From a virus (Duplodnaviria; Heunggongvirae; Uroviricota; Caudoviricetes), in IMG/VR virus record IMGVR_UViG_2713897055_000015, positions 1-10,263 of that record: a stretch of DNA of 10,263 nt; one strand, given 5' to 3'. The notes below the pieces were generated by a model. It was not told the DNA's origin and did no database searches. It saw only the letters and a list, made by a program, of their open reading frames with translations. Shown piece after piece: positions 1 to 10,263 of the stretch (within the stretch, counting starts at the first letter, position 1; each line of letters opens with the position of its first letter). The position numbers and the translations under genes were made by a program.

Positions 1-25
1 AGGCGAATTTCCGCCTTCGGTCATT

Positions 26-106
26 CCTTAATCATCTGCGTAATCATAATGATTATTCAGCCAGCGCAATTTTGCGCTTTGCTTTAAGTTCAACCAGTTA
101 CCGCCA
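26..106. repeat. Copy 1 of an ~80-bp imperfect direct repeat
   Basis: Read directly: 26-106 aligns with 149-238 (CCTTAATCATCTGCGTAA...CATTCAGCCAGCGCAATTTTG(C/A)GCTTTGCTTTAA...GTTACCGCC). Contains near-palindrome AATCATAATGATTA and a short hairpin AGCGC-AATTTT-GCGCT. Confidence 0.7.
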
Positions 107-148
107 GCTTCCCCCAATGGGGGATTGTGGAATAATCAACGGTTTAGG

Positions 149-238
149 CCTTAATCATCTGCGTAAACATAAGTAATCATAATGATCATTCAGCCAGCGC
201 AATTTTGAGCTTTGCTTTAATCTCAGTGAGTTACCGCC
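149..238. repeat. Copy 2 of the ~80-bp direct repeat, with a ~9-bp internal insertion; its end overlaps the stop codon of the 93-aa ORF
   Basis: Read directly; the hairpin present in copy 1 is disrupted here (GCGC to GAGC). Confidence 0.7.
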
Positions 239-512
239 GCAACCGTTCCGGCTTCTTCCAGTGGTACGTGATTTTCTCCTTCTCCCGATACATCTCCACG
301 CGGCGACGGTATGCCAGCAACTCAAGGACTCTGGTTCGTATGTTGCGCATATCCACGCCGTTAAGCTCAATACCATCACGGCGCATCACCTCAGCAACAA
401 CACGCACATAATTTTCAGCGGTCACGCTGTCCGGATGTGTGGCCTGTTCGTCATGCTGCTGGCTGATTCCGGTAACGCGGCGGATTAATCCCAGTAGTTC
501 GGCTTCTGTCAT
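231..512 (-). CDS. Hypothetical protein (93 aa), basic C-terminus, function unknown
   Basis: ORF from the six-frame track; G-rich Shine-Dalgarno-like GGGGG about 5 nt upstream of the ATG at 510-512; protein-like composition. No family recognised by eye. Confidence 0.5.
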   Translation of the reverse strand: MTEAELLGLIRRVTGISQQHDEQATHPDSVTAENYVRVVAEVMRRDGIELNGVDMRNIRTRVLELLAYRRRVEMYREKEKITYHWKKPERLRR

Positions 513-544
513 TGTGCCCCCATCGCTCTGATAGCCTGGTGTCG

Positions 545-612
545 TCGGGTCCTTCCTGGAATTATGGCCCGTTACGGGGCGGCGACCTCACGGTTTTTCG
601 CTATTTATGAGC
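545..612 (+). other. Lambda-type cos site copy 1 (cosQ-like flank, cosN, I2-like), plus-strand orientation
   Basis: 568-589 CCCGTTACGGGGCGGCGACCTC followed by TTTTTCGCTATTTATGA. From memory this is nearly identical to the lambda cosN region, with the 12-nt cohesive-end sequence GGGCGGCGACCT at 577-588. Confidence 0.75.
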
Positions 613-626
613 TTTTTTTAGAGGGA

Positions 627-777
627 GGTTGTTGTTTAATTGTTTGTCATATCCATTTGATAACTAAGTAAAAATAAAGAGCAATACAACAACCTGATAG
701 TGTTTTTTTGATGCTAAAAATAAAAAAATGCTAATTGAATCAAATAGTTTTAAAAAAATACGTGGTTGTTGTATTGC
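627..777. promoter_or_regulatory. AT-rich region with three GGTTGTTGT-type repeats in direct-inverted-direct arrangement (candidate cosB-like terminase-binding R sites)
   Basis: GGTTGTTGTTT at 627-637; GCAATACAACAACC at 681-694, which is the exact reverse complement of GGTTGTTGTATTGC at 764-777. Spacing after cosN resembles the lambda R3-R2-R1 layout but the repeat sequence differs from the lambda R sites as I recall them. Confidence 0.45.
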
Positions 778-806
778 GTATTTGATGGCGTAACAGAAAG
801 TGATTT

Positions 807-1247
807 TTAACTTTGCTGTTCTGTAACGACTGATTGTTCCATGCTGGCACGGCGAACGCTTACGGCATGACGCCACCCAGCCAGAAAGCCGGCCATTTTA
901 TTTCGCGCTTTGCTCACTTCTTCCGGTGAGTAGCCGTAAATCTGTAAACCTTCATCAAATCTATGTTCTGTTTCTTCACTGGAGTACTCGTCACGCTCAG
1001 ATGAAAGCAGCCTGGCAACCATAATTTTTTCCAGCGCACTGGTTTCTACGTGATATCCAATGGCCTCAAGATGGCTTTTACCTGAAGACCAAAGCAATGT
1101 ATGCCCGATGTGATAACCGCCGGACTTTCCGCGATCCGCATTAAGATACGGCATCCCTTGTTTGGTCCATGCGCGAATAGTGGTTCTGTTTACCTTGAAA
1201 TGTTCAGCTATTTCCTGCTGACTTACAAAACAAGCCTTATTAATCAT
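807..1247 (-). CDS. Nu1-like small-terminase-family protein: N-terminal winged-HTH cos-binding domain with a divergent C-terminal region (146 aa)
   Basis: N-terminus MINKACFVSQQEIAEHFKVNRTTIRAWTKQGMPYLNADRGKSGG resembles lambda gpNu1 N-terminus (VNKKQLADIFGASIRTIQNWQEQGMPVLRGGGKG, recalled from memory). SD GAGGT 8 nt upstream of the ATG at 1245-1247. A cos site lies about 90 bp upstream. Confidence 0.7.
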   Translation of the reverse strand: MINKACFVSQQEIAEHFKVNRTTIRAWTKQGMPYLNADRGKSGGYHIGHTLLWSSGKSHLEAIGYHVETSALEKIMVARLLSSERDEYSSEETEHRFDEGLQIYGYSPEEVSKARNKMAGFLAGWRHAVSVRRASMEQSVVTEQQS

Positions 1248-1304
1248 AATGTTACCTCAATTGACTGATTAAATGTTAATCAAGTGGTGGTGGTGTCACC
1301 TTCA

Positions 1305-1390
1305 CGGAAAAACGTCATAAATAGCGAAAACGCGCGAGGTCGCCGCCCCGTAACGGGTCCATATGCCGGAAAGGACCCGTAAAAAAAAGC
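1305..1390 (-). other. Lambda-type cos site copy 2 (cosQ-like flank, cosN, I2-like), minus-strand orientation, directly upstream of the Nu1-like gene
   Basis: Reverse complement of 1305-1390 reads ACGGGTCCTTTCCGG..CCCGTTACGGGGCGGCGACCTCGCGCGTTTTCGCTATTTATGACG. The 12-mer is at 1337-1348 on the complement. About 85% identical to copy 1 over ~70 bp, in inverted orientation. Confidence 0.8.
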
Positions 1391-1404
1391 CGGATTTCTC
1401 CGGC
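1381..1404 (-). terminator. Intrinsic terminator (hairpin GCCGGA-TTTC-TCCGGC followed by U8 on the minus strand) ending the capsid operon
   Basis: Read directly: A8 at 1381-1388 and hairpin at 1389-1404 on the plus strand, giving hairpin plus T-run on the minus strand, 7 bp past the stop of the 137-aa ORF. Confidence 0.75.
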
Positions 1405-1410
1405 CTTGTC

Positions 1411-1824
1411 TCAGATGGTTTTCAGTATGCGCTCGATGTCGCCATCATCGCCCGGGTTTCTGCCGTCGTATGCCATGCCAGCTGAAACGGCTTGCGGGCT
1501 GTGCATGTCCATAAAGTTTTCAAAGGCTGCGGTAAGCTCCGGCGCAACCTTCTGGCGTTCCTGCTCTATGGTCATGCTAAGGATGCTTTTAGCCGTACCA
1601 ACATCGATACAAGGCACGTTTGCCATTGCACGTAACAGCGGCTGATAGTCGTTATGCTCATGAAGCGCCATAATCGCATCAGCGCGCGGCTTGTCCTGCT
1701 CTTCCAGTTTGTTGAGTTGATATACGGCCTCGTAGGTTGATAAACCTCTGTCAGCCATTGCTCGCGCTTCGGCTTTAAATTTACTCGCCAGCGGTAGCGT
1801 CATGATGCTTTCATTCGTTGCCAT
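1411..1824 (-). CDS. Hypothetical protein (137 aa), last gene of the capsid operon; function unknown
   Basis: ORF with protein-like composition, 12 nt downstream of the decoration-protein gene. No confident homology by eye. Confidence 0.65.
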   Translation of the reverse strand: MATNESIMTLPLASKFKAEARAMADRGLSTYEAVYQLNKLEEQDKPRADAIMALHEHNDYQPLLRAMANVPCIDVGTAKSILSMTIEQERQKVAPELTAAFENFMDMHSPQAVSAGMAYDGRNPGDDGDIERILKTI

Positions 1825-1836
1825 CGTTCCCCCTGC

Positions 1837-2172
1837 TTATCGGGCCAGCGGCTGAACGGATACGCCAGAACCCGCAAAGGCGGCGCATTTTTTCGCATCG
1901 GTGTCGACGCTCTCGGGCCAGTTCACGGCGGCGATATTAAAGATCCCCGTCTTGTAGCACTGTGCTGATTTCTGCTTTGACGTGTCCACGGGGTACGAAG
2001 TCAGATAAACAGCCTTTCCGGACGCCTGACCATCCCACGGCTTAAACTCGCCATTGTCCGCCAGCATCAGCGGGGTAAATTCCTGAATGACGCCAGCATC
2101 AGCGGCAAAATGTACCAGCGTCGTGGATACCTGCTGACTGCCTGCAAATAACTCAATGTATGGAGTGTTCAT
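1837..2172 (-). CDS. Head decoration protein, lambda gpD-like (111 aa)
   Basis: Translation shares TPLML, WDG, YK(S/T)G(T/I)F, WPE and AFAG motifs in the same order as lambda gpD (recalled from memory); size matches (~110 aa). Confidence 0.8.
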   Translation of the reverse strand: MNTPYIELFAGSQQVSTTLVHFAADAGVIQEFTPLMLADNGEFKPWDGQASGKAVYLTSYPVDTSKQKSAQCYKTGIFNIAAVNWPESVDTDAKKCAAFAGSGVSVQPLAR

Positions 2173-2183
2173 AGAATCCCCCG

Positions 2184-3239
2184 TTAACCAATTTTGACGG
2201 TAACAAATTTGCGAATGTCTGCCGGCACCGGCTGCGGTGCGCTGTGCGTCTGCACGTACTCAATCGCCGGATCGCCGTCCTCAATCCAGTTTTTCGGGTA
2301 GTACATGTTTTGCGTTGCGCCCGTTCTTACCGCTTCCTGATCCATAATCGCACCATAAGCAACCAGCCCTTTATTGTTGGTGTTGCCCAAGACCAGCAAA
2401 TCAGGCTCAAGGAAATGTTTTTCGGTGCCGTCGCTGTCGGCGTATTTGCCGGAATAGACGATAAGGGCAATATCGCCCAGATAGCCTTTAAAGCTCACCA
2501 CTTCGCCTAGGTTTTTACAGGCCAGTTCTGCGGCGGATTCTGAACCACGGGAAAGATCGTACAGTTCGCGGAATTTTTTAAAGCTGCGTAACGTGCGCCA
2601 TACCTCAGCGCCCATAATCATGACGTTTGCGGGGCAATTGCCCTGATCCGCATAAAGCTCGATATCATAGATTGGATCGTGGGTTTCTTTGTCCTGCTCG
2701 GACCATTTACGGCCTTTGGCCTGCTCTATGATGTTGTTTTCCGGCATCTTCCAGTCGATTTCATAGCGTTCTATGCCTTCGCCCTCAATGATGTTTTTTC
2801 CGGTCGTTACCGCATTTACCGCCAGCCATTCAACACGCGCTTTAATAGCGTTTACCTGGCGGCGCATGTTGCCAGTAATCAGGCGCATACGGCGATAGGT
2901 TGGGTCGTTAAGCTGTGCCGGATCTTCTCCAGCCATGCGCATGATGGTTTTTGTTGGATCGATTTCGTGCTTTGGCTTCATGTAGCCAGGTTTAATCGTG
3001 CTGGTTTCGTACCCTTTATCGCGCTGTACCTGGCTACCAACCATAGGCGAGCAAAACGCTGACATAGTGACTTCTTCGGTGTCCAGGTTATCCAGCATGA
3101 TGTTTTGGGTGTTGAATGTCGCTACTTTCGGGAAAAACAGCGTGGTAAACAGCGGACTAAATTTAAATTCCGCAATATCCCCGCGATTCAGGTACGCAAA
3201 AAGCTGGTTAGTGTTAAGTGCCGTTGCTTTGCCTGCCAT
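2184..3239 (-). CDS. Major capsid protein, lambda gpE family (351 aa)
   Basis: Extended blocks match lambda gpE as recalled: EFKFSPLF..LFF, PGYMKPKHEI, GEDPAQLNDPTYRRMRLI, VSFKGYLGDIALIVYSGKY, YPKNWIEDGDPA. Confidence 0.92.
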   Translation of the reverse strand: MAGKATALNTNQLFAYLNRGDIAEFKFSPLFTTLFFPKVATFNTQNIMLDNLDTEEVTMSAFCSPMVGSQVQRDKGYETSTIKPGYMKPKHEIDPTKTIMRMAGEDPAQLNDPTYRRMRLITGNMRRQVNAIKARVEWLAVNAVTTGKNIIEGEGIERYEIDWKMPENNIIEQAKGRKWSEQDKETHDPIYDIELYADQGNCPANVMIMGAEVWRTLRSFKKFRELYDLSRGSESAAELACKNLGEVVSFKGYLGDIALIVYSGKYADSDGTEKHFLEPDLLVLGNTNNKGLVAYGAIMDQEAVRTGATQNMYYPKNWIEDGDPAIEYVQTHSAPQPVPADIRKFVTVKIG

Positions 3240-3445
3240 TATTCACCCCCATAATTTTTATGCATCCCAAGCGCCGCAAGTAAATAAGAGCGCACAAGTG
3301 AACCTATCGACGGCTCCGGCGTCATCAGCGGATCCAGTCCAGCCGCTACGCCAGCCTCATAGTTTTTTTTGTGGCGCTGCTTGAGCACCTCCACGATTTC
3401 GGGGCTTATGTACACCGAAACACCGCCTTTTTTCTCTTCTGCCAT
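3239..3445 (-). CDS. Hypothetical small protein (68 aa), first gene of the capsid operon, translationally coupled to the capsid gene (TAATG overlap)
   Basis: SD AGAGGA ~11 nt upstream of the ATG at 3443-3445; stop overlaps the capsid gene start by 1 nt. Confidence 0.6.
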   Translation of the reverse strand: MAEEKKGGVSVYISPEIVEVLKQRHKKNYEAGVAAGLDPLMTPEPSIGSLVRSYLLAALGMHKNYGGE

Positions 3446-3484
3446 AGTCAGAAATTCCTCTTTGACTTAAAAAAATCACAACTG

Positions 3485-3512
3485 GATGTTCATCCAGTTA
3501 TGATTATAATCA
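3485..3512. promoter_or_regulatory. Promoter/operator region upstream of the capsid operon: imperfect inverted repeat GGATG-TT-CATCC (3485-3496) and perfect 12-bp palindrome TGATTATAATCA (3501-3512) containing TATAAT on both strands
   Basis: Read directly; lies 40-70 bp upstream of the first capsid-operon ATG. Confidence 0.5.
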
Positions 3513-3608
3513 TGATTGCATTTTGCGCAATAAAATTGAGTTGTGTTGCAAATTATGAAATGATTTACAGCAACAGTAGTCACCATGCTGTTAACCTCGT
3601 AAGCAAAA

Positions 3609-3647
3609 GCCCGATAAGCTTCCTCCTGTACTTATCGGGCTTTTTTT
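3609..3647 (+). terminator. Hairpin (GCCCGATAAG...CTTATCGGGC) followed by T7 on the plus strand; intrinsic terminator for a plus-strand transcript or bidirectional element
   Basis: 10-bp stem, 12-nt loop, seven T at 3641-3647. No annotated plus-strand gene ends here. Confidence 0.5.
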
Positions 3648-3653
3648 GGGTAC

Positions 3654-3676
3654 AAAAAGCCGGATTTTCTCCGGCC
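3654..3676 (-). terminator. Intrinsic terminator of the SSB operon (hairpin GCCGGATTTTCTCCGGC, U5 on the minus strand); near-identical to the terminator at 1381-1404
   Basis: Read directly; lies 8 bp past the SSB stop codon. Confidence 0.7.
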
Positions 3677-3683
3677 TGTGCGT

Positions 3684-4094
3684 TCAGAACGGAATATCAT
3701 CACCGTAGGGGTCATCGTCTCCCGCTGGTGGCTGATTACCCTGTGCGCCTGTGGTTTTGCGTCTGTTCCCGCCAGGACGTGCCGCACGGGCACTGATTAC
3801 GCTGTCTGCAATAACCTGATAACCCTGCCGCGTTTCCCCGTTCTGTCCGGTCCACTGGCTTATCTGCATCACGCCAGATATGCTGGCAACGTCGCCTTTT
3901 TGATGTTTAGCCAGGAAGTCGGCCTGCTTACCAAATGCCATCACCGATAGCCATAACGTAGCCGTTCCGTCATCTGCCTGGCTGCACGGAAGGGGGACCG
4001 CCATACGCGCCAGCGTCATCGGTGTGCCCTTGCTGGTCTGTTTTACCTGCGGGTCGTCCACCAGCCGCCCGTAAGCGGCTATCTGTGCTGTCAT
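3684..4094 (-). CDS. ssb: Single-stranded DNA-binding protein (SSB family, 136 aa)
   Basis: OB-fold-like N-terminal region resembling E. coli SSB, Gly/Gln-rich linker, and the characteristic acidic C-terminal tail ending DDIPF. Confidence 0.88.
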   Translation of the reverse strand: MTAQIAAYGRLVDDPQVKQTSKGTPMTLARMAVPLPCSQADDGTATLWLSVMAFGKQADFLAKHQKGDVASISGVMQISQWTGQNGETRQGYQVIADSVISARAARPGGNRRKTTGAQGNQPPAGDDDPYGDDIPF

Positions 4095-4405
4095 GATTCC
4101 ACCTCTCCGGTTTTAACGTTGATGGTTGTTACCTGTTCCGCTTCGGCAATCTCCCGTTCTGTCAGCGTGGCAAAGTTTGCCGCCGCTGTGGTCATGAATG
4201 CGCTTATCAGGTCGGGATGTTCCTTCGCGTATCCTTCCCGCGTGTGGCGGTCTATCGTTCTGATTGCCACCTTTAAGGTATGCTCAGTCATGTCTAACGC
4301 TTTATATTTTGGCTCTGTTCTGTCTCTGCGAATTTTGGTCATTTGTCGCCCCTGGTTCATGTTTTCGGCTGGCATGTTTGTTAAGTGATTTTGATGTATG
4401 CGCAT
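4091..4405 (-). CDS. Hypothetical protein (104 aa) translationally coupled to ssb (ATGA overlap)
   Basis: SD GAGGGGGTGA upstream of the ATG at 4403-4405; stop overlaps the ssb start. Function not recognised. Confidence 0.6.
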   Translation of the reverse strand: MRIHQNHLTNMPAENMNQGRQMTKIRRDRTEPKYKALDMTEHTLKVAIRTIDRHTREGYAKEHPDLISAFMTTAAANFATLTEREIAEAEQVTTINVKTGEVES

Positions 4406-4452
4406 TTATTTTCACCCCCTCGTTTAAAAAGTTTTTAGTTGTGCCTCCCCCC

Positions 4453-4675
4453 CTCTACCCATCTACCCGAATGCTCATCATGTCAGTAATGGCGCGGCTT
4501 TCAGCGGGTAGATAGCTTTTTGGGCTCCTCTACCTGCCGTCTACCCTGCTACCTGAAACTGATAAAATCAGGTAGAAGAGGTAGAGAGCTTTTATTAGCC
4601 TTCTACCTAGCCCTCTACCCACTTATCATGTTGAATAATATGCGTTTATTTCATTCAGGTAGATGGGGTAGAGGG
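4453..4675. repeat. Iteron array (about 12 copies of a TCTACC-core octamer in both orientations) with AT-rich stretches; putative origin of replication
   Basis: CTCTACCC 4453-4460, ATCTACCC 4461-4468, GGGTAGATA 4506-4514, CTCTACCT 4528-4535, TCTACCCT 4540-4547, CAGGTAGAAG 4569-4578, GGTAGAGA 4580-4587, TTCTACCT 4601-4608, CTCTACCC 4613-4620, GGTAGAT 4658-4664, GGGTAGAGGG 4666-4675. Lies immediately 3' of, and overlapping, the primase gene end. Confidence 0.7.
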
Positions 4676-6438
4676 CTTTTACAAAAAATTATAAAAAACG
4701 CGTCGCAATCGTCTGTTGTAATTGCGTTGGTCTGCGTTACTCCCTTAACTTTTCGCGTAATATATTCATGCCCGTAAACTTTCGCCGCTGGCTTCATGGC
4801 CTTGCTGAACTCAGCCACGTTTAGCGGTTTGCTCCTGCCTGCGTATGCCATAAACGCCAGATAGACGCGGTAAAGGCTGTTCCTGGTCGTGTACTTCACT
4901 GAATCGCCACCGCCGCCCATCATCAGGCCGCGTGCTTCCTCCAGAAAATTCAGGAACTGGCAAAACTCAATAACCGGATCCGTCTGTTGCTTTATTGCCA
5001 GAGCTTCATCACCGTCACGCTGTTCCAGTAGTAAAGCCCGTGCCTTCTCAGGGTCGGTAAAGTTCGCCAGCAATCGGCGGATAATGACAGGGATTTCAGC
5101 CGCAATCTTTTCCGGTAGCTCCCTGTCTTTTTCGGCCTCACTGACGATATTGTCGAAACGGAAAATTACGCGACGACGTGACACACCTCCGGCCCGTTCG
5201 GTGAATATCATCGGGTTATTGTTGGTAGCCAGCACCACCGCCCTGATTACCGCCGTAAAACGCTTCTCATATTTCGGGTTAATTTCCACGGGGTCGCCGC
5301 CCGTGATTTTCTTGATGCCCGTTCCTTCGCCTGTATATTTCGGCTGGTCAGCCAGGACGATAAGACGACTCCCGACAACCTGCGCACGTCCACCAGCATC
5401 ATCAAGCGATGTCATTTCAGCGCTTACCGTGTTCTGTTTCCCTGCCAGAAGGCTGGCTATGTGTGTGAATGTACTTTTACCGCTCCCGCCGTCTCCGGTG
5501 GCCTCAATAAACATCTGCCAGTCGTACCGGTTCGCCATAATCATGTACAGCGCGGCACATATACGCATCATCTTGCGCGGGTCTTTTCCGGCTGCGTGCT
5601 CAAGCCATTTATGAAAGTTTGGCGCGTTGTCGCGGATATTCTCCCCTGGTGCTGGTGGCGTGTACTCAATGCCGTTGTGCGTGGTGATCCAGTTCTCCGG
5701 CGTGTGCGGGGAAAATTCCCCCGTTTTCAGGTCAAGCGCACCATTGGCGAACGGCAGCAAATCGCCGGACGGCTCGCCCATTGGTTCGGCAATAACTTTT
5801 AACGCTTCCACGGCGTTATTGATTACGCGCTTGCTGAAAGTGGCCCTGTGCTCTGAATAGATCGCCACCATTTCGCGGCTAAGTTCCATTGTGCTGACCG
5901 GACACCATACCCCGCCGCGCCATACGTGAACGATTTCACTTTCCGGATGCACACAAACGCCATCAAATCGACCAGCAAGCATCTGTGCGCGCTCACTGTC
6001 TGCCATTTGTGCCAGTTGCGTATTTTTCTGCTCCGGCATGGTAAGCCCTGCGGCAATATTTTCACGCTCAGCATTCAGATAGCGCCGCCAGTTTTCACAC
6101 TTCTGGACGTGCATTCCTTCGTGGTAAAAATTTGCGTCCTGAATATCTGCCGCCGCCAGCTTCTGACCAATCTTTTTGGTCTCCACTAAATCCAGTTCTC
6201 CGGCCTGGTACAGCCTTACGCGCTTTTTCCCATCCGGAACAATTTTCAGCGCATCAAGTTCGGCAAGCTGCTTTGGCCCAAGCCACACAGGCGGCACATT
6301 ATCGCCGGATGCGGGGCCATCCTGCTCCTGCCATTGTTTCGCGTGCGACCAGGCATCACTACCCGCAAAGATAATTACCTCTGTGTCTTTGTGTTTTATT
6401 CCGCGTGGCTGTTTTTTTACGTTCGGTGCCAGTTTCAT
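4651..6438 (-). CDS. Primase-helicase of the P4 alpha / D5 family (595 aa) with a P-loop NTPase domain
   Basis: Walker A motif GDGGSGKST within a region typical of phage/plasmid primase P4-family C-terminal domains; position (upstream of iterons, downstream of immunity-type genes) matches satellite replication genes. The final ~17 codons are encoded by iteron sequence. Confidence 0.88.
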   Translation of the reverse strand: MKLAPNVKKQPRGIKHKDTEVIIFAGSDAWSHAKQWQEQDGPASGDNVPPVWLGPKQLAELDALKIVPDGKKRVRLYQAGELDLVETKKIGQKLAAADIQDANFYHEGMHVQKCENWRRYLNAERENIAAGLTMPEQKNTQLAQMADSERAQMLAGRFDGVCVHPESEIVHVWRGGVWCPVSTMELSREMVAIYSEHRATFSKRVINNAVEALKVIAEPMGEPSGDLLPFANGALDLKTGEFSPHTPENWITTHNGIEYTPPAPGENIRDNAPNFHKWLEHAAGKDPRKMMRICAALYMIMANRYDWQMFIEATGDGGSGKSTFTHIASLLAGKQNTVSAEMTSLDDAGGRAQVVGSRLIVLADQPKYTGEGTGIKKITGGDPVEINPKYEKRFTAVIRAVVLATNNNPMIFTERAGGVSRRRVIFRFDNIVSEAEKDRELPEKIAAEIPVIIRRLLANFTDPEKARALLLEQRDGDEALAIKQQTDPVIEFCQFLNFLEEARGLMMGGGGDSVKYTTRNSLYRVYLAFMAYAGRSKPLNVAEFSKAMKPAAKVYGHEYITRKVKGVTQTNAITTDDCDAFFIIFCKSPLPHLPE

Positions 6439-6734
6439 TTTTTACCCCTGAATACGTTAAGCATCTTTTTTATTTCCTGAATATTGGCGCGTGCTTTCTC
6501 CCTGCTGGTTGGTTTACTGCGGGGCGCTGCCTGTACCAGAGAAAAATCACGATCGAACTGATAAACAGGCATAACGCAGTCATATTCGTAGCCTTCACGG
6601 CGGTAAGTTACGCGCCGTTCCTCCACGCCTTTAATCGTTACCGTGCCGCCGTACTGGTCGCGGTAAATATCCCCGCGCATGAATTTAGTGCGAGTTTTGC
6701 CACTGGCAGTTAAGCCAGAATATTTAAGTTTCAT
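6435..6734 (-). CDS. Small protein (99 aa), possibly DUF4222-like, translationally coupled to the primase gene (ATGA overlap)
   Basis: Motif RRVTYRREGYEYDCV recalls DUF4222-type proteins from P4-like elements (from memory, unverified); SD GGAG upstream. Confidence 0.55.
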   Translation of the reverse strand: MKLKYSGLTASGKTRTKFMRGDIYRDQYGGTVTIKGVEERRVTYRREGYEYDCVMPVYQFDRDFSLVQAAPRSKPTSREKARANIQEIKKMLNVFRGKK

Positions 6735-6739
6735 TATTT

Positions 6740-6967
6740 TTATTCTCCGGTGTGGGGCGCGTTATTATTTTCGTGAATTGCCATCGCCTTATCCAGTTCA
6801 TCAATTACAGGCGATAGTAATGTCTGAACGGCGGCAAGCATTAATGACGAAGATTCTTCTCCAGCTTCCGTTGCTTCAATTAATTTAATTAACAACGCAT
6901 TCATTTCACGCGCTTTAATTAATGCGTTTTCAGAATGAATAAGAACATCATAGGGTATTTTATTCAT
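6740..6967 (-). CDS. Hypothetical small protein (75 aa), overlapping the upstream Icd-like gene by 8 nt
   Basis: ORF with protein-like composition in operon context. Function unknown. Confidence 0.55.
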   Translation of the reverse strand: MNKIPYDVLIHSENALIKAREMNALLIKLIEATEAGEESSSLMLAAVQTLLSPVIDELDKAMAIHENNNAPHTGE

Positions 6968-7130
6968 GACTCACCCCCTGACGAATACGGGCGACAAAAA
7001 TCAGATGTGCGTGCGGCAGCTGGGCGCGTGCTTCGCGTTCAGTGGCAGCGGTAACGGTGTAAATATCAATGCTGCTGTGGTGGCACTGCATAAAGCGCCA
7101 GACAAAGTAAGGGCGTGCGGATACAGCCAT
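6960..7130 (-). CDS. Icd-like small protein, copy 2 (56 aa; MAVSARPYFVWRF...ARIRQGVSHE)
   Basis: Start chosen at the internal ATG (7128-7130), preceded by AGGAG at 8-nt spacing. The C-terminal 50 aa are paralogous to copy 1. The long N-terminal extension in the ORF track (168 aa) is not supported. Confidence 0.6.
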   Translation of the reverse strand: MAVSARPYFVWRFMQCHHSSIDIYTVTAATEREARAQLPHAHLIFVARIRQGVSHE

Positions 7131-7194
7131 GTGAAAGGCTCCTACAGTAATTTTAAGGAGTCTCGCTACTACGCTGCTAAACGGGGTGGCGAGA

Positions 7195-7256
7195 CGTAAC
7201 AGGGTTAGCAGACTGGCACTGTAGGAACCAGCGAGCGCAAAGGCTCCCCCGTTACG
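7195..7256 (-). ncRNA. Candidate CI/C4-like immunity RNA carrying a seqB-like element
   Basis: On the minus strand CGUAACGGG (from plus 7248-7256) can pair with CCCUGUUACG (from plus 7195-7204), closing a ~60-nt element that contains GGUUCCUACAGUGCCAGUCUGCUAACC. That inner sequence is complementary to an upstream stretch (7321-7360) and to the SD region of Icd-like copy 2 (7138-7150). Confidence 0.4.
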
Positions 7257-7416
7257 CCCCGCCATAATGCGGGTATGGGTAGGCTTACGGACACAAAAAA
7301 ACCGCATATCGGAATATAAGCGGCTGTCCGCTACAGTATTCAGGCTGCTAAACCCGGTCGCCATGTGGGCGACGGGGGAAGCATACAGCCCCGTTATAAT
7401 TTTTTGCAAGCGGTTT

Positions 7417-7614
7417 TTACGCATGATGTGACCCCTGACGAATACGGGCGGCGAATACAGCAACACAACCGGACGGGCAACGGCTACGCGCTTCGCGTTC
7501 CGTCCAGGCGGTTACGTGGATGATTTGATGGTCTGACGCGCCAAAGGCAATAAAACGCCACACAAAGGCGGTTTGTGTGTGCGCTAGTCGTGGGGTATGC
7601 TGTCTTACAGCCAT
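7417..7614 (-). CDS. Icd-like small protein, copy 1 (65 aa; MAVRQHTPRLAHTQTAFVWRF...ARIRQGSHHA)
   Basis: Start chosen at the ATG (7612-7614) preceded by AGGAG at 8-nt spacing, same start context as copy 2 (AGGAG-N8-ATGGCTGTA). The ORF-track extension to 7737 is unsupported. Confidence 0.55.
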   Translation of the reverse strand: MAVRQHTPRLAHTQTAFVWRFIAFGASDHQIIHVTAWTEREARSRCPSGCVAVFAARIRQGSHHA

Positions 7615-7689
7615 AATCGTTACTCCTGTTAACGGTTTGGTTAGACGCCCTGCATGTGTGCCACCACTGCGGGGCGTTGTCGTTTGGTG

Positions 7690-7799
7690 CATCGCACCAC
7701 TCATTTTTAACCTATCAGTAAGTGAATCGCACTTCAAGCCTTTCTCTGAAATTTTTTTTTGTGTATACTGAATCGCACCAACTTAGAGAGGATTCAGTA
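7690..7799. promoter_or_regulatory. Divergent promoter/operator region with repeated (TG)AATCGCAC motifs and a T9 tract
   Basis: ATCGCAC at 7692-7698, GTGAATCGCAC at 7722-7732, TGAATCGCACC at 7770-7780; TATACT -10-like hexamer at 7764-7769 preceded by TG, upstream of the RHH gene; the minus-strand immunity-type operon starts in the opposite direction. Confidence 0.5.
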
Positions 7800-7979
7800 A
7801 TGGCAACAGGTTCAACAAATAATAAGTCGCAACAGTTAAATGCCAGATTCCCGCATGATGTTGTTGCAGACTTAGAAAAAAATTTAGATGAAGGTGAAAG
7901 CAAGGCGCAATTTATAGTTACTGCCGTTAAAGGCGAGATCAAACGCCGCCAGCGCCGCAAGGCCAAAGAATCAGAATAA
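7800..7979 (+). CDS. Small ribbon-helix-helix-like DNA-binding protein (59 aa)
   Basis: Start at the ATG (7800-7802) with SD GAGAGGA. Sequence pattern QLNARFPHDVVADLEKNLDE..FIVTAVKGEI fits a beta-strand/helix/helix (CopG/Arc-like) layout; basic C-terminus. The upstream extension in the ORF track depends on a GTG and crosses the promoter. Confidence 0.6.
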   Translation: MATGSTNNKSQQLNARFPHDVVADLEKNLDEGESKAQFIVTAVKGEIKRRQRRKAKESE

Positions 7980-8036
7980 TCACTATCAGCGCCGTGGTGT
8001 GAGGTACTACGGCGCATTGCTTTACAGGGCAGTATC

Positions 8037-8264
8037 ATGACCAACAACACACTATTACCAATACAAGACACGCAAACCCAAGATGATGAAATCATCCGGC
8101 AAAGGCAGTCAGAAGCCTGCGCCAGAGTTGAGGAAGAACTAACCAGAACAAAAATACCACCACCAGCGCCGCGCTTAATGCCACCAGAAAAATTTGCCCT
8201 TGAAGATTTTGTCGAGAAATACCCACGGCGGTTAAAAGCCACTAAAAACCGACCGCCTGGCTGA
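8037..8264 (+). CDS. Hypothetical small protein (75 aa), acidic N-terminal half and Pro-rich segment
   Basis: ORF downstream of the RHH gene after a hairpin (GCGCCGT..ACGGCGC, 7991-8017); weak SD. Function unknown. Confidence 0.45.
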   Translation: MTNNTLLPIQDTQTQDDEIIRQRQSEACARVEEELTRTKIPPPAPRLMPPEKFALEDFVEKYPRRLKATKNRPPG

Positions 8265-8420
8265 TAGCCTTGTCCACCAGCTACGGCGGTGCTAAGATCG
8301 AAAGCTGCATAAGTCATGAAATAAACTCCTTAGCGGTGCATACGCGCCGCTTCTTTCTTCACGAACAACCGCGAACAACTACAAACAAAAACACGGACGG
8401 AATTTAAAGAATGAATATTC

Positions 8421-8615
8421 TTAATTGACGCGTTCGCGGTTTTTGACCCACGCCACAACCTCAGACTTAACCCAGCCAACCGAACGACCGCCAAGACTGA
8501 TACGGGAGGGAAAGCGGCCTTGTTTTTCCATCTCGTAACGAGTTGTGCGGCAAACGCCTGTTAGCTCTCTGCATTCTTTTTCGCGGATTACACGATCTTC
8601 ATTTATTTCGCGCAT
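8421..8615 (-). CDS. alpA: AlpA-family phage transcriptional regulator / excisionase-like protein (64 aa)
   Basis: Small HTH protein with the typical AlpA-family pattern (..LTGVCRTTRYEMEKQGRFP..I.LG.RSVGW...EV..W...) located next to a P4-type integrase. Confidence 0.85.
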   Translation of the reverse strand: MREINEDRVIREKECRELTGVCRTTRYEMEKQGRFPSRISLGGRSVGWVKSEVVAWVKNRERVN

Positions 8616-9024
8616 AAAAAGCCCTACATAAAATTACGTATAGAAATTTTTGTTTCGCTGTGGATATACGGAAAGAGATTACTTCTTAGCTTTTCTTACC
8701 TCTTAAATTGATGGCGTAACCTTGCCAAAAGCTATGCTCGACAAGGTTCGCAAGGGTTCGTTGTTGTTCATAAAATCGTTGCACACCAGGAAAGACAATT
8801 CAACATTAAAATTCCCTCTACAGTGAGGAATAATAAAAAAAACAAATTAAAACAGTCACATAAAAGCATGCACTTTGAAATAAAGGAAAATATTAAAACT
8901 CAAGTAGACAATCGCTGTTTTCAAATTTTTTCAATACTTGACACATATAAATCGTCGATATTTGCCGATATTCGACGATTTATTTTAGAGGGCCATTTTT
9001 CGCAAGAAAAACAGCCGTAATTTG

Positions 9025-10263
9025 TCAAGAATTTTGAGAGTAAATTCGCGGGGTCATAACAACGATTTTTTCATCATTGTTCTGGAGAAGCTCGAGACGC
9101 TCAACCCATAGATTAAGAGCGTCACGTTTTGCATCGAGATAACGGGAGTGATTATAGACTCGTTGCACTCCTGGCAACTGGTGCGCGGTTAGCTGCTCCA
9201 CTACATGAGGATCCACGCCTAAATCGTTCAGCATCGTTGTAAACGTGTGCCGGATGTCGTGCAACGTCCAGGGGGCTTGATTAATACGTCTGTGTGCCGT
9301 TCTTCCGTACTCTGATACGGATGATTGCCCTTTCAGTTCTCCGAGCAATAATCCCGTGTGCCTGTTCTGCTCCACCAGCTTCGTTACGAACGGCAAGATC
9401 GCTTCCGGTATTGGCCTGAATATTGCTACCTTCGTTTTGCTATGTTCTTTCGGCACGGTCCAGAGCATTTCTTTAAAATCCCATTCCTGGACCTCAGAGC
9501 GTCTTAGCTCAGTGGTACGACATCCGAAGACAATCAGGAGGCGAATCAGGGCGCTGTAGTACGGTGGGTAAATTTTTTCATCCAGGGCGCGGAGTAATTC
9601 CCCAAGCTCCTTGTTTGTTAGTACGCGCTCGCTTATTTCTGCTTTTTTCCCAACATCACCTACAACCATATCATCTAGAACGTTGGTAATTGCGTAGCGT
9701 CGTTTGCGGCAGTACTTAAGCGCCTGCTTGCATACCTGTAACAAAAATCCTGCTGATACCGGATTACGCTTAGCAAGCTGATCAAAACAGGTCAGCCAGT
9801 GGCGTAGCTCGCATTTTTCCAGCGGCATAGCACCAATATGGCTGATTATGTGTGTATTGATCCGGCTTTTCAGAGATTCGTAATCTGTGCGCTTTTCCTT
9901 CGCGTACGATTCAAGCCAGTAAGTGAGCGCTTCCTTAACCGTAACAGGTGATAACGCTTCCTGTACGGTGTGATTAAGCTCATGGCGTGGATTTTTACCC
10001 TCAGCAAGCCAGGCGCGACACTGCGACGCTTTTTCCCTGGCTGCTTTCAGGCTCAAATCTGGATAATTTCCCAGCCTCAGACGTTCAGGGGCTACCTTCC
10101 TGCCTGTTCCGGCCCTGTAAGTGAAATACCAGGTTAACAGGCCATTGGTTGAATGCCTTACGCTAAGGTTGCCACCATCATTAAAAAAGGTGTTTTTTGT
10201 GGTTGGTGATCCGCTTAATTTTCGTAAAAGAGTGTCGCTAAGTCTATGAATTGCCCTGCTCAT
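9025..10263 (-). CDS. int: Tyrosine site-specific integrase, P4-type (412 aa; start codon at the window edge, N-terminus possibly a few residues longer)
   Basis: N-terminal arm-binding-type region (LSD..L..L.....K....DGG.L.V.....G...W.F.Y) and C-terminal catalytic signature HDIRHT ... VYNHSRY, typical of P4/CP4-57-type integrases. Confidence 0.95.
   Translation of the reverse strand: MSRAIHRLSDTLLRKLSGSPTTKNTFFNDGGNLSVRHSTNGLLTWYFTYRAGTGRKVAPERLRLGNYPDLSLKAAREKASQCRAWLAEGKNPRHELNHTVQEALSPVTVKEALTYWLESYAKEKRTDYESLKSRINTHIISHIGAMPLEKCELRHWLTCFDQLAKRNPVSAGFLLQVCKQALKYCRKRRYAITNVLDDMVVGDVGKKAEISERVLTNKELGELLRALDEKIYPPYYSALIRLLIVFGCRTTELRRSEVQEWDFKEMLWTVPKEHSKTKVAIFRPIPEAILPFVTKLVEQNRHTGLLLGELKGQSSVSEYGRTAHRRINQAPWTLHDIRHTFTTMLNDLGVDPHVVEQLTAHQLPGVQRVYNHSRYLDAKRDALNLWVERLELLQNNDEKIVVMTPRIYSQNS

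Follow-up and report, generated by a model that had tools for sequence, protein, structure and literature searches.

A four-gene capsid block on the minus strand

The window considered here is a stretch of 10,263 nt (positions 1 to 10,263 of the IMG/VR virus record IMGVR_UViG_2713897055_000015) that is, with near certainty as judged from its genes, almost the whole of a Gram-negative phage-inducible chromosomal island (PICI) of the EcCICFT073 type, so named after an island located at roxA/phoQ in the CFT073 chromosome. The subject of this report is the late, or capsid, module of that island, a tight unit of four minus-strand genes (nt 1411–3445) that encode a protein of 68 amino acids (aa), orf68, a major capsid protein of the lambda gpE type, a decoration protein of the gpD type and a 137-aa protein, in that order (Table 1). 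The stop codon of orf68 overlaps the ATG of the capsid gene by one base (TAATG) and the two are translationally coupled, the remaining intergenic gaps are 11 and 12 nt, and each of the four genes is preceded by a GGGGG(A/T) ribosome-binding site. A preliminary description of the window, made from the sequence alone, had proposed just such an operon, bounded by a promoter-like palindromic region and an intrinsic terminator, and this layout holds. The upstream region has a perfect TATAAT (nt 3508–3503, minus strand), an ATTGC-N7-GCAAT dyad (nt 3515–3531) and a palindrome with 15-nt arms (nt 3474–3505), and is conserved across eight islands; it may well be the promoter of the block. A sigma-70 consensus scan called no site at nt 3474–3531, and the -35 hexamer is weak. 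Two hairpins lie downstream of ssb and upstream of the block (arms at nt 3605–3644 and 3654–3679), and the second of these is nearly identical to the terminator after the 137-aa gene, both having the form GGCCGGAGAAA(A)TCCGGC followed by a T-run (nt 3654–3679 and 1386–1407).

The 351-aa product matches the Pfam family Phage_cap_E (PF03864; E 3.5e-50) over positions 14–328 of the 329 in the profile, and is nearly identical (E 4.5e-228) to PDB 3BQW, a structural-genomics entry from CFT073 with the title 'putative capsid protein of prophage'. Its identity to lambda gpE (structure 7VI9, E 8e-84) is 43%, and both the profile and the solved gpE-type structures place the protein in PF03864 as a full-length member. 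Its closest phage relative is 46–47% identical, with none above 47% among 50,697 phage records. The 111-aa product belongs to the gpD/SHP family, by profile (HDPD, PF02924; E 5.6e-18) as well as by its matches to the structures of phage 21 SHP (1TD0, E 2.9e-13) and lambda gpD (1C5E, E 2.4e-9); identity to lambda gpD is 36% over 76 residues. The earlier calls of a full-length gpE-like capsid protein and a gpD-like decoration protein are confirmed by these matches. NCBIfam gave no match for any of the four block proteins. Three families of the block are homologous to lambda C/Nu3, D and E, and the order of E before D is indeed the reverse of that in lambda (C/Nu3-D-E). The block differs from lambda also in that its scaffold gene is cut to 137 aa and lacks a protease domain, in its extra 68-aa leader gene, and in belonging to a satellite-specific lineage.

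Table 1. Features of the window. Identities are at the protein level; dN/dS is the ratio of nonsynonymous to synonymous substitution rates.
Feature	Position (nt)	Strand	EcCICFT073 counterpart (identity)	Median dN/dS	Remarks
orf68 (68 aa)	3239–3445	-	unnumbered 68-aa ORF (67.6%)	0.26	first gene of block; PHROG 3255
Major capsid protein, lambda gpE type (351 aa)	2184–3239	-	c1499 (94.3%)	0.11	ortholog of c1499 / PDB 3BQW
Head decoration (cement) protein, gpD / phage 21 SHP type (111 aa)	1837–2172	-	c1500 (96.4%)	0.085	ortholog of c1500; lowest dN/dS of the four
gpC/Nu3 C-terminal scaffold domain homolog, by sequence (137 aa)	1411–1824	-	c1501 (95.6%)	0.30	ortholog of c1501
Promoter-like palindromic region	3474–3531	-			upstream of orf68; TATAAT, dyad, palindrome
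Intrinsic terminator	1386–1407	-			9-bp hairpin then T-run, just past last stop codon; closes block
Lambda-type cos site 1	1308–1379	-			exact cosN 12-mer GGGCGGCGACCT at 1337–1348; directly downstream of block, upstream of rpp
Rpp, helix-turn-helix protein (146 aa)	807–1247	-	RppA/c1503 (93.8%)		matches RppC structure 6HLK
Lambda-type cos site 2	546–617	+			cosN 12-mer GGGCGGCGACCT at 577–588; inverted relative to site 1
orf93 (93 aa)	231–512	-			ORF list
SSB	3684–4094	-			gene assignment
104-aa ORF	between primase and SSB genes	-			ORF list
Primase-replicase, pri-rep (595 aa)	4651–6438	-			D5_N, DUF5906 and Pox_D5 matches (Pfam)
DUF4222 protein	6435–6734	-			domain assignment
Icd-like region	between AlpA and DUF4222 genes	-			relatives annotated 'Icd-like cell division inhibitor'
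AlpA-type regulator (Phage_AlpA)	8421–8615	-			E 4.7e-16; adjoins integrase
Integrase (412 aa)	9025–10263	-			Phage_integrase + Arm-DNA-bind_3 (Pfam); one island end

A scaffold-domain homologue among the four proteins

On sequence grounds, the 137-aa protein is a homologue of the C-terminal scaffold domain of gpC/Nu3, because PHROG profiles cross-match between the two and because it aligns with the tail of gpC in the helper prophage of CFT073. It spans phrog_1999 from end to end (E 6e-65), a profile also matched by residues 117–200 of lambda Nu3 (E 2.7e-26), and it matches the extreme C-terminus of phrog_53, the head maturation protease (E 5.5e-8). The helper used for comparison was CFT073 prophage 4, the natural helper of EcCICFT073, situated next to icd. 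Residues 49–134 of the satellite protein align with residues 416–498 of the 501-aa S49 peptidase of this prophage (BLASTP E 4.8e-8, 31–37% identity), and the alignment takes in both a repeat motif (D.IMAL.E...) and a tail motif (TA.FE.FM..HSP.AV). More distant relatives are stand-alone proteins made up of three such repeats. The family is narrow, a profile search of the whole library yielding only 12 relatives. Alignment of its shallow family profile to lambda Nu3 with hhalign was weak (E 0.005, probability 7%), direct BLASTP against lambda gpC gave an E-value of 0.13, and tblastn against the 50,697 phage records found no match. The AlphaFold2 (AF2) model is all-helical and of low confidence (pLDDT 61.5), and a Foldseek search with it against the PDB returned nothing with E <1. 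Some orthologues are called 'phage head-tail connector protein' in RefSeq, a name that is unsupported by Pfam, NCBIfam or fold matches; the sequence points instead to the gpC/Nu3 C-terminal scaffold domain. The protein may bind the capsid protein and so serve as an internal scaffold while the procapsid is assembled.

The predicted proteins thus give the island genes for a capsid, a cement and a scaffold-domain protein but no protease domain. The preliminary description had counted the scaffold among the missing head functions, together with portal, protease and large terminase; the absence of these other three stands (see below), while that of the scaffold was mistaken, the 137-aa protein being the homologue just described.

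The product of orf68 is more obscure. The gene is always the first of the block, a position kept in diverged E. coli and Salmonella islands, and exists as two alleles with ~68% protein identity (67.6% between the window and EcCICFT073) and 77–78% identity in DNA. The split between the alleles (nt 3239–3445 of the window, 5463–5669 of the EcCICFT073 locus L010) directly adjoins a capsid gene that is 94% identical, which points to a recombination boundary there or else to more rapid evolution at the start of the operon. There was no Pfam, NCBIfam or fold match for orf68; the AF2 model consists of two helices (pLDDT 72.0), with nothing at E <1 in Foldseek against the PDB. A strand-helix-helix pattern had raised the possibility of a ribbon-helix-helix regulator, but this is unsupported, there being no Pfam match even at E 10. 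Of the checks suggested in the preliminary description, profile and structure matches bear out the capsid and decoration proteins, and structure prediction for orf68 and the 137-aa protein gave models without a PDB match.

The island and the head genes it lacks

The window is assigned to the EcCICFT073-type PICIs because its proteins are orthologous to c1499, c1500, c1501 and c1503 (94–96% identity), because of the matches to 3BQW and 6HLK, the inverted pair of cosN sites, and the combination of AlpA, pri-rep, integrase and iterons, and because the limits of the island can be seen in relatives. The PICI traits present in the window itself are a tyrosine integrase at one end with AlpA adjoining it, pri-rep followed by iterons, and cos sites together with Rpp. 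Size and site could be read from the closest relatives, which are 93% identical across 83% of the window and carry an island of ~11.7 kb with half of a split tqsA gene on either side. In these, the island extends ~460 bp beyond the left end of the window and, on the other side, stops immediately behind int, and its neighbours are ordinary chromosomal genes, so that they show the 10–15 kb size, chromosomal attachment (att) site and absence of tail and lysis genes that are typical of PICIs. EcCICFT073 has the same gene order: int, alpA, Icd-like region, DUF4222, pri-rep, ori, ssb, orf68, capsid, decoration, 137-aa gene, cos, rppA, cos and orf93. It differs from the window in its location (roxA/phoQ, against tqsA for the closest overall relatives of the window), in a PerC-like gene between ssb and orf68 that the window lacks, in a primase of 88% identity, and in its orf68 allele. 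The earlier view of the element as a satellite is upheld by these hallmarks and by the orthology to EcCICFT073, and the search among described satellite families that it called for finds the block in PICIs of this type.

No portal, protease, connector or large terminase was found in Pfam and PHROG scans of the candidate coding ORFs (open reading frames) of the window, and the primase and the integrase are the only ORFs in it long enough to be a portal, a large terminase or a protease. The preliminary description had allowed that these genes might lie immediately outside the window, but no portal, protease or large terminase occurs beyond the island ends in the relatives examined. Other islands with the same four genes, situated at roxA/phoQ, near clpS or beside an autotransporter pseudogene, likewise have none of the three. 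A degraded prophage was therefore rejected, for lack of its defining genes and in view of the island ends visible in relatives. A capsid-forming PICI (cf-PICI, e.g. EcCIEDL933) was rejected as well: such islands share with this one the PICI backbone (int, alpA, rep) and a capsid protein of their own, but in the present island portal, protease, connectors and large terminase are all missing and the capsid protein is of the gpE family (PF03864). The P4-type families Sid, Psu and Delta were not detected in Pfam and PHROG scans of the window ORFs, and a P4-like satellite, of which these are the defining genes, could be rejected, a C4-family antisense RNA in the window (see below) being of a family found in P1 and P7 too. 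P4 is an Enterobacterial satellite of similar size that also encodes capsid-directed proteins; these show no homology to the block, and whereas Sid and Psu sit on the outer surface of shells made by the helper, the block encodes homologues of a shell, a cement and an internal scaffold protein. The distinction from P4 drawn in the preliminary description is in keeping with this.

Distribution, selection and divergence of the block

A 2.1-kb query spanning the block found matches of 91–99% identity in 598 of 5426 complete E. coli genomes; 592 of these genomes have an intact block, matched along at least 80% of its length. The carriers, about one in nine of the complete genomes, include O157:H7, Nissle 1917 and CFT073. 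The block occurs on backbones that differ in integrase, att site, replicase, and Rpp or TerS (small terminase), and none of the four genes is interrupted by a stop codon in any of nine islands whose backbones differ. Medians of pairwise Nei-Gojobori estimates of dN/dS among these nine islands, with dS reaching ~0.9, are low for every gene (Table 1). The block is under purifying selection and is a functional module. The order orf68-E-D is kept in Salmonella, and also in a variant with a scaffold gene that is only 39% identical.

Compared with the natural helper, the satellite proteins are similarly diverged: 44% identity between capsid protein and E, 34.5% between decoration protein and D, and 31–37% between the scaffold domain and the gpC tail. 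In view of the purifying selection, of this similar divergence from E, D and gpC, and of the lack of a phage capsid protein above 47% identity, the block proteins are, so far as their sequences tell, an old, satellite-specific and co-diverged cognate set, neither a recent capture nor a relic.

The block (nt 1380–3520 of the window) shares 99.4% identity with its counterpart in a roxA/phoQ island (L004, NZ_CP048337.1) that has a different integrase and a RepA-type helicase in place of the primase. The rest of the window is closest to the tqsA islands, whose capsid blocks are ~95% identical. From these comparisons, recombination seems to carry the block from one PICI backbone to another. Two further islands lie within late regions of prophages, one (L005, NZ_CM143727.1) between lambda-type head genes (capsid, FI, head-tail joining) and P2-like myovirus tail genes, the other (L015) next to a gpJ-like tail gene, and both fit the published helper-embedded type of PICI. 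Occasional inactivation does occur, as one E. coli assembly (L011, nt 7589–8641) has its capsid gene split into ORFs of 177 and 145 aa. In a Salmonella relative (L014) a 79-aa ORF without a family match stands in place of the 137-aa gene.

cos sites and Rpp

The two cosN copies of the window are exact and lie within 72-nt inverted arms that flank rpp (Table 1); the sequence around the first copy resembles the lambda cos region. EcCICFT073 has the same inverted pair (positions 7559 and 8298 of L010), and both of its cos sites are functional (PMC6092414). No discussion of their inverted orientation was found in the consulted papers on that island. The Rpp protein matches the RppC structure 6HLK with an E-value of 5.5e-32. 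Rpp redirects the small terminase subunit of the helper to the PICI cos site (PMC6739421). In the Salmonella relative (L014, nt 11157–12025) the capsid block is followed by two tandem Rpp/TerS-like helix-turn-helix genes, of 141 and 146 aa.

Other features of the window

The minus strand holds all substantial genes of the window. At least ten iterons (CTCTACC / GGTAGAG), in both orientations, form a dense array at nt 4443–4680, directly downstream of the primase gene, which is presumably the replication origin of the island. The Icd-like region contains a C4 antisense RNA (nt 7182–7269, minus strand; Rfam RF01695, 71.5 bits against a gathering threshold of 45, E 9.5e-13). This RNA family is known also from P1 and P7, and its presence suggests a c4-icd immunity cassette of the P1/P7 style in the early region of the PICI. 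Close to the left end of the window there is a direct repeat (nt 26–105 and 149–238) of 66–80 nt, 89–96% identical and with a spacing of 123–133 nt, that partly overlaps the end of the 93-aa ORF region.

Published work on EcCICFT073

The capsid and decoration genes of EcCICFT073 were already published in 2018 by Fillol-Salom et al., and the island described here is not a new kind of satellite. The capsid homologue was mentioned again in the review of Dokland 2019 (PMC6893505), 21 of 29 reference Gram-negative PICIs have a capsid gene (Mageeney et al. 2023, PMC10111431), and capsid genes have been reported as the commonest phage late gene in such islands. Helper-dependent induction, packaging and high-frequency transfer have been shown experimentally for EcCICFT073 only (PMC6092414), and c1503/RppA was identified as its interference and packaging factor (Fillol-Salom et al. 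2019, PMC6739421). No later open-access study of the function of the block genes was found in the literature. What the current study adds is the scaffold homology of the 137-aa protein, the intactness of the block and the purifying selection on it, and the observation that both marked islands used in the published work are disrupted within the block.

The latter point concerns how the published experiments were built. According to the supplement of the 2018 paper, c1501 is the 137-aa protein and c1502 a 60-aa ORF (PMC6092414). The marked islands were c1501::tetA and c1499::cat, and the deletions of c1499 and c1500, which left both lambda interference and transfer unchanged, were constructed in the c1501::tetA background (Fillol-Salom et al. 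2018, PMC6092414 and its Table 1). The published negatives are confounded because every assay used an island whose marker either interrupted the scaffold-domain gene or stood in place of the capsid gene. They show that the module is dispensable for transfer under laboratory conditions but cannot show what an intact block does.

Possible roles of the capsid block

In lambda, Nu3 has a part in procapsid assembly only, and gpD attaches solely to the three-fold sites of a gpE lattice that has expanded. Since the satellite has private and strongly conserved copies of gpD and Nu3, its capsid protein most likely forms real lattices. The explanation towards which we lean, though tentatively, is that the shells are specified by the satellite, which builds them from its capsid, scaffold and cement proteins on the portal of the helper. 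Starting from that portal, the capsid protein would assemble around the scaffold domain encoded by the satellite itself; DNA would be packaged into the shells by the helper terminase, which Rpp directs to the neighbouring cos site, and trimers of the gpD-like protein would cement the lattice once expanded; portal, protease, terminase, head-completion proteins and tail would all come from the helper. Shell assembly, the use of the helper portal and any change of size are presumed steps in this scheme. Several points weigh against it. There is no direct evidence of the satellite capsid protein in any particle, and the scaffold lacks the N-terminal two thirds of Nu3, which leaves unclear how the portal and protease of the helper would enter the shell. 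The low confidence of the AF2 model of the 137-aa protein means that structural support beyond sequence is absent. Particles of EcCICFT073 made with lambda packaged only phage-sized DNA, and an island with c1499 missing or c1501 interrupted is still mobilised by prophage 4, lambda and phi80, at 10^3–10^6 per ml (PMC6092414), in line with the dispensability noted above. Finally, among genes cloned from downstream of the origin, only rppA inhibited lambda (PMC6739421). A broader version of the scheme, which we regard as doubtful, would make the EcCICFT073-type PICIs 'shell-forming' satellites, intermediate between classical PICIs and cf-PICIs, with a shell of their own, possibly small, and with portal, protease, terminase and tail stolen from the helper. 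In that reading shell formation would have gone unnoticed because the selection marker of either published marked island sits within the module. A rough estimate by volume scaling from the lambda T=7 head (48.5 kb) gives a T=3-like shell a capacity of ~11–14 kb, near the ~11.7 kb of the island.

A different role is suggested by the Ccm protein of SaPIbov5, a cos-packaged satellite that likewise carries a homologue of the HK97-fold capsid protein of its helper. With phage phi12, Ccm occupies the pentamers and redirects the shape of the capsid (PMC8569155), and PmCI172 also carries a capsid homologue and makes small capsids (PMC6092414; PMC6893505). By analogy, the satellite capsid protein might take up particular positions in the helper shell, such as the pentamers, and alter its size, shape or stability with some helpers; in its favour, too, the island has ~11.7 kb, roughly a quarter of a lambda-type genome. 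This we consider unlikely: only phage-sized DNA is packaged with lambda (albeit in a marked island), a private decoration and scaffold protein would be needless if a few subunits were inserted into the helper lattice, and at 44% identity to helper E the formation of mixed capsomers is uncertain. Ccm is a single gene whose product forms pentamers and gives T=4 isometric shells (PMC8569155), whereas the capsid gene here is accompanied by a decoration and a scaffold-domain gene of the satellite, and no change in size has been seen. The preliminary description had envisaged capsid-size redirection by an element whose proteins co-assemble with, or replace, those of the helper. The published lambda data lean against a change of size, given the phage-sized DNA, the neutral c1499 and c1500 deletions and the blocking of lambda by rppA only. 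These tests do not speak against co-assembly or replacement as such, because they were done in islands marked inside the block, and either is plausible.

The block could also serve as a store of spare parts, supplying capsid proteins where a helper-embedded PICI interrupts the E gene of its helper, or to defective lambdoid prophages whose head-shell genes have been lost, and so widening the helper range. Helper-embedded relatives do exist (L005 and L015), and a backup copy was suggested by Mageeney et al. (PMC10111431), who also noted that E is the most frequent insertion target; the same authors remarked, however, that such redundancy is not essential. Most islands with the module sit away from prophages (tqsA, roxA/phoQ, near clpS), and an identity of 31–44% to the helper counterparts is unlike that of a recently captured backup, so that this role seems quite improbable. 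Still less credit is given to a role outside particle building, as anti-phage decoys or dominant-negative subunits or in some other non-structural capacity. That PICIs commonly carry several interference mechanisms (PMC6739421) and that the module is dispensable for transfer would suit it, but deletion of rppA alone restored lambda plaquing almost fully, with no other cloned gene downstream of the origin blocking lambda (PMC6739421), and the decoration protein, as the most conserved of the four (dN/dS 0.085), is hard to square with a poison subunit. The possibility that the block is a decaying remnant of captured late genes, now without function, is very remote in spite of the lack of a phenotype upon deletion (PMC6092414) and of the split capsid gene in L011, for the full block is intact in 592 genomes, nine diverged islands have its four genes uninterrupted, at dN/dS values of 0.09–0.30, and gene order is conserved across genera; a relic was rejected on the dN/dS values.

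Implications

If the block does build satellite-specific shells, PICI particles could differ from those of the helper in antigenicity, stability and capacity, which would matter both for gene transfer and for engineered PICI delivery vehicles. In practical terms, the existing knock-out data come from islands in which the block was already disrupted.

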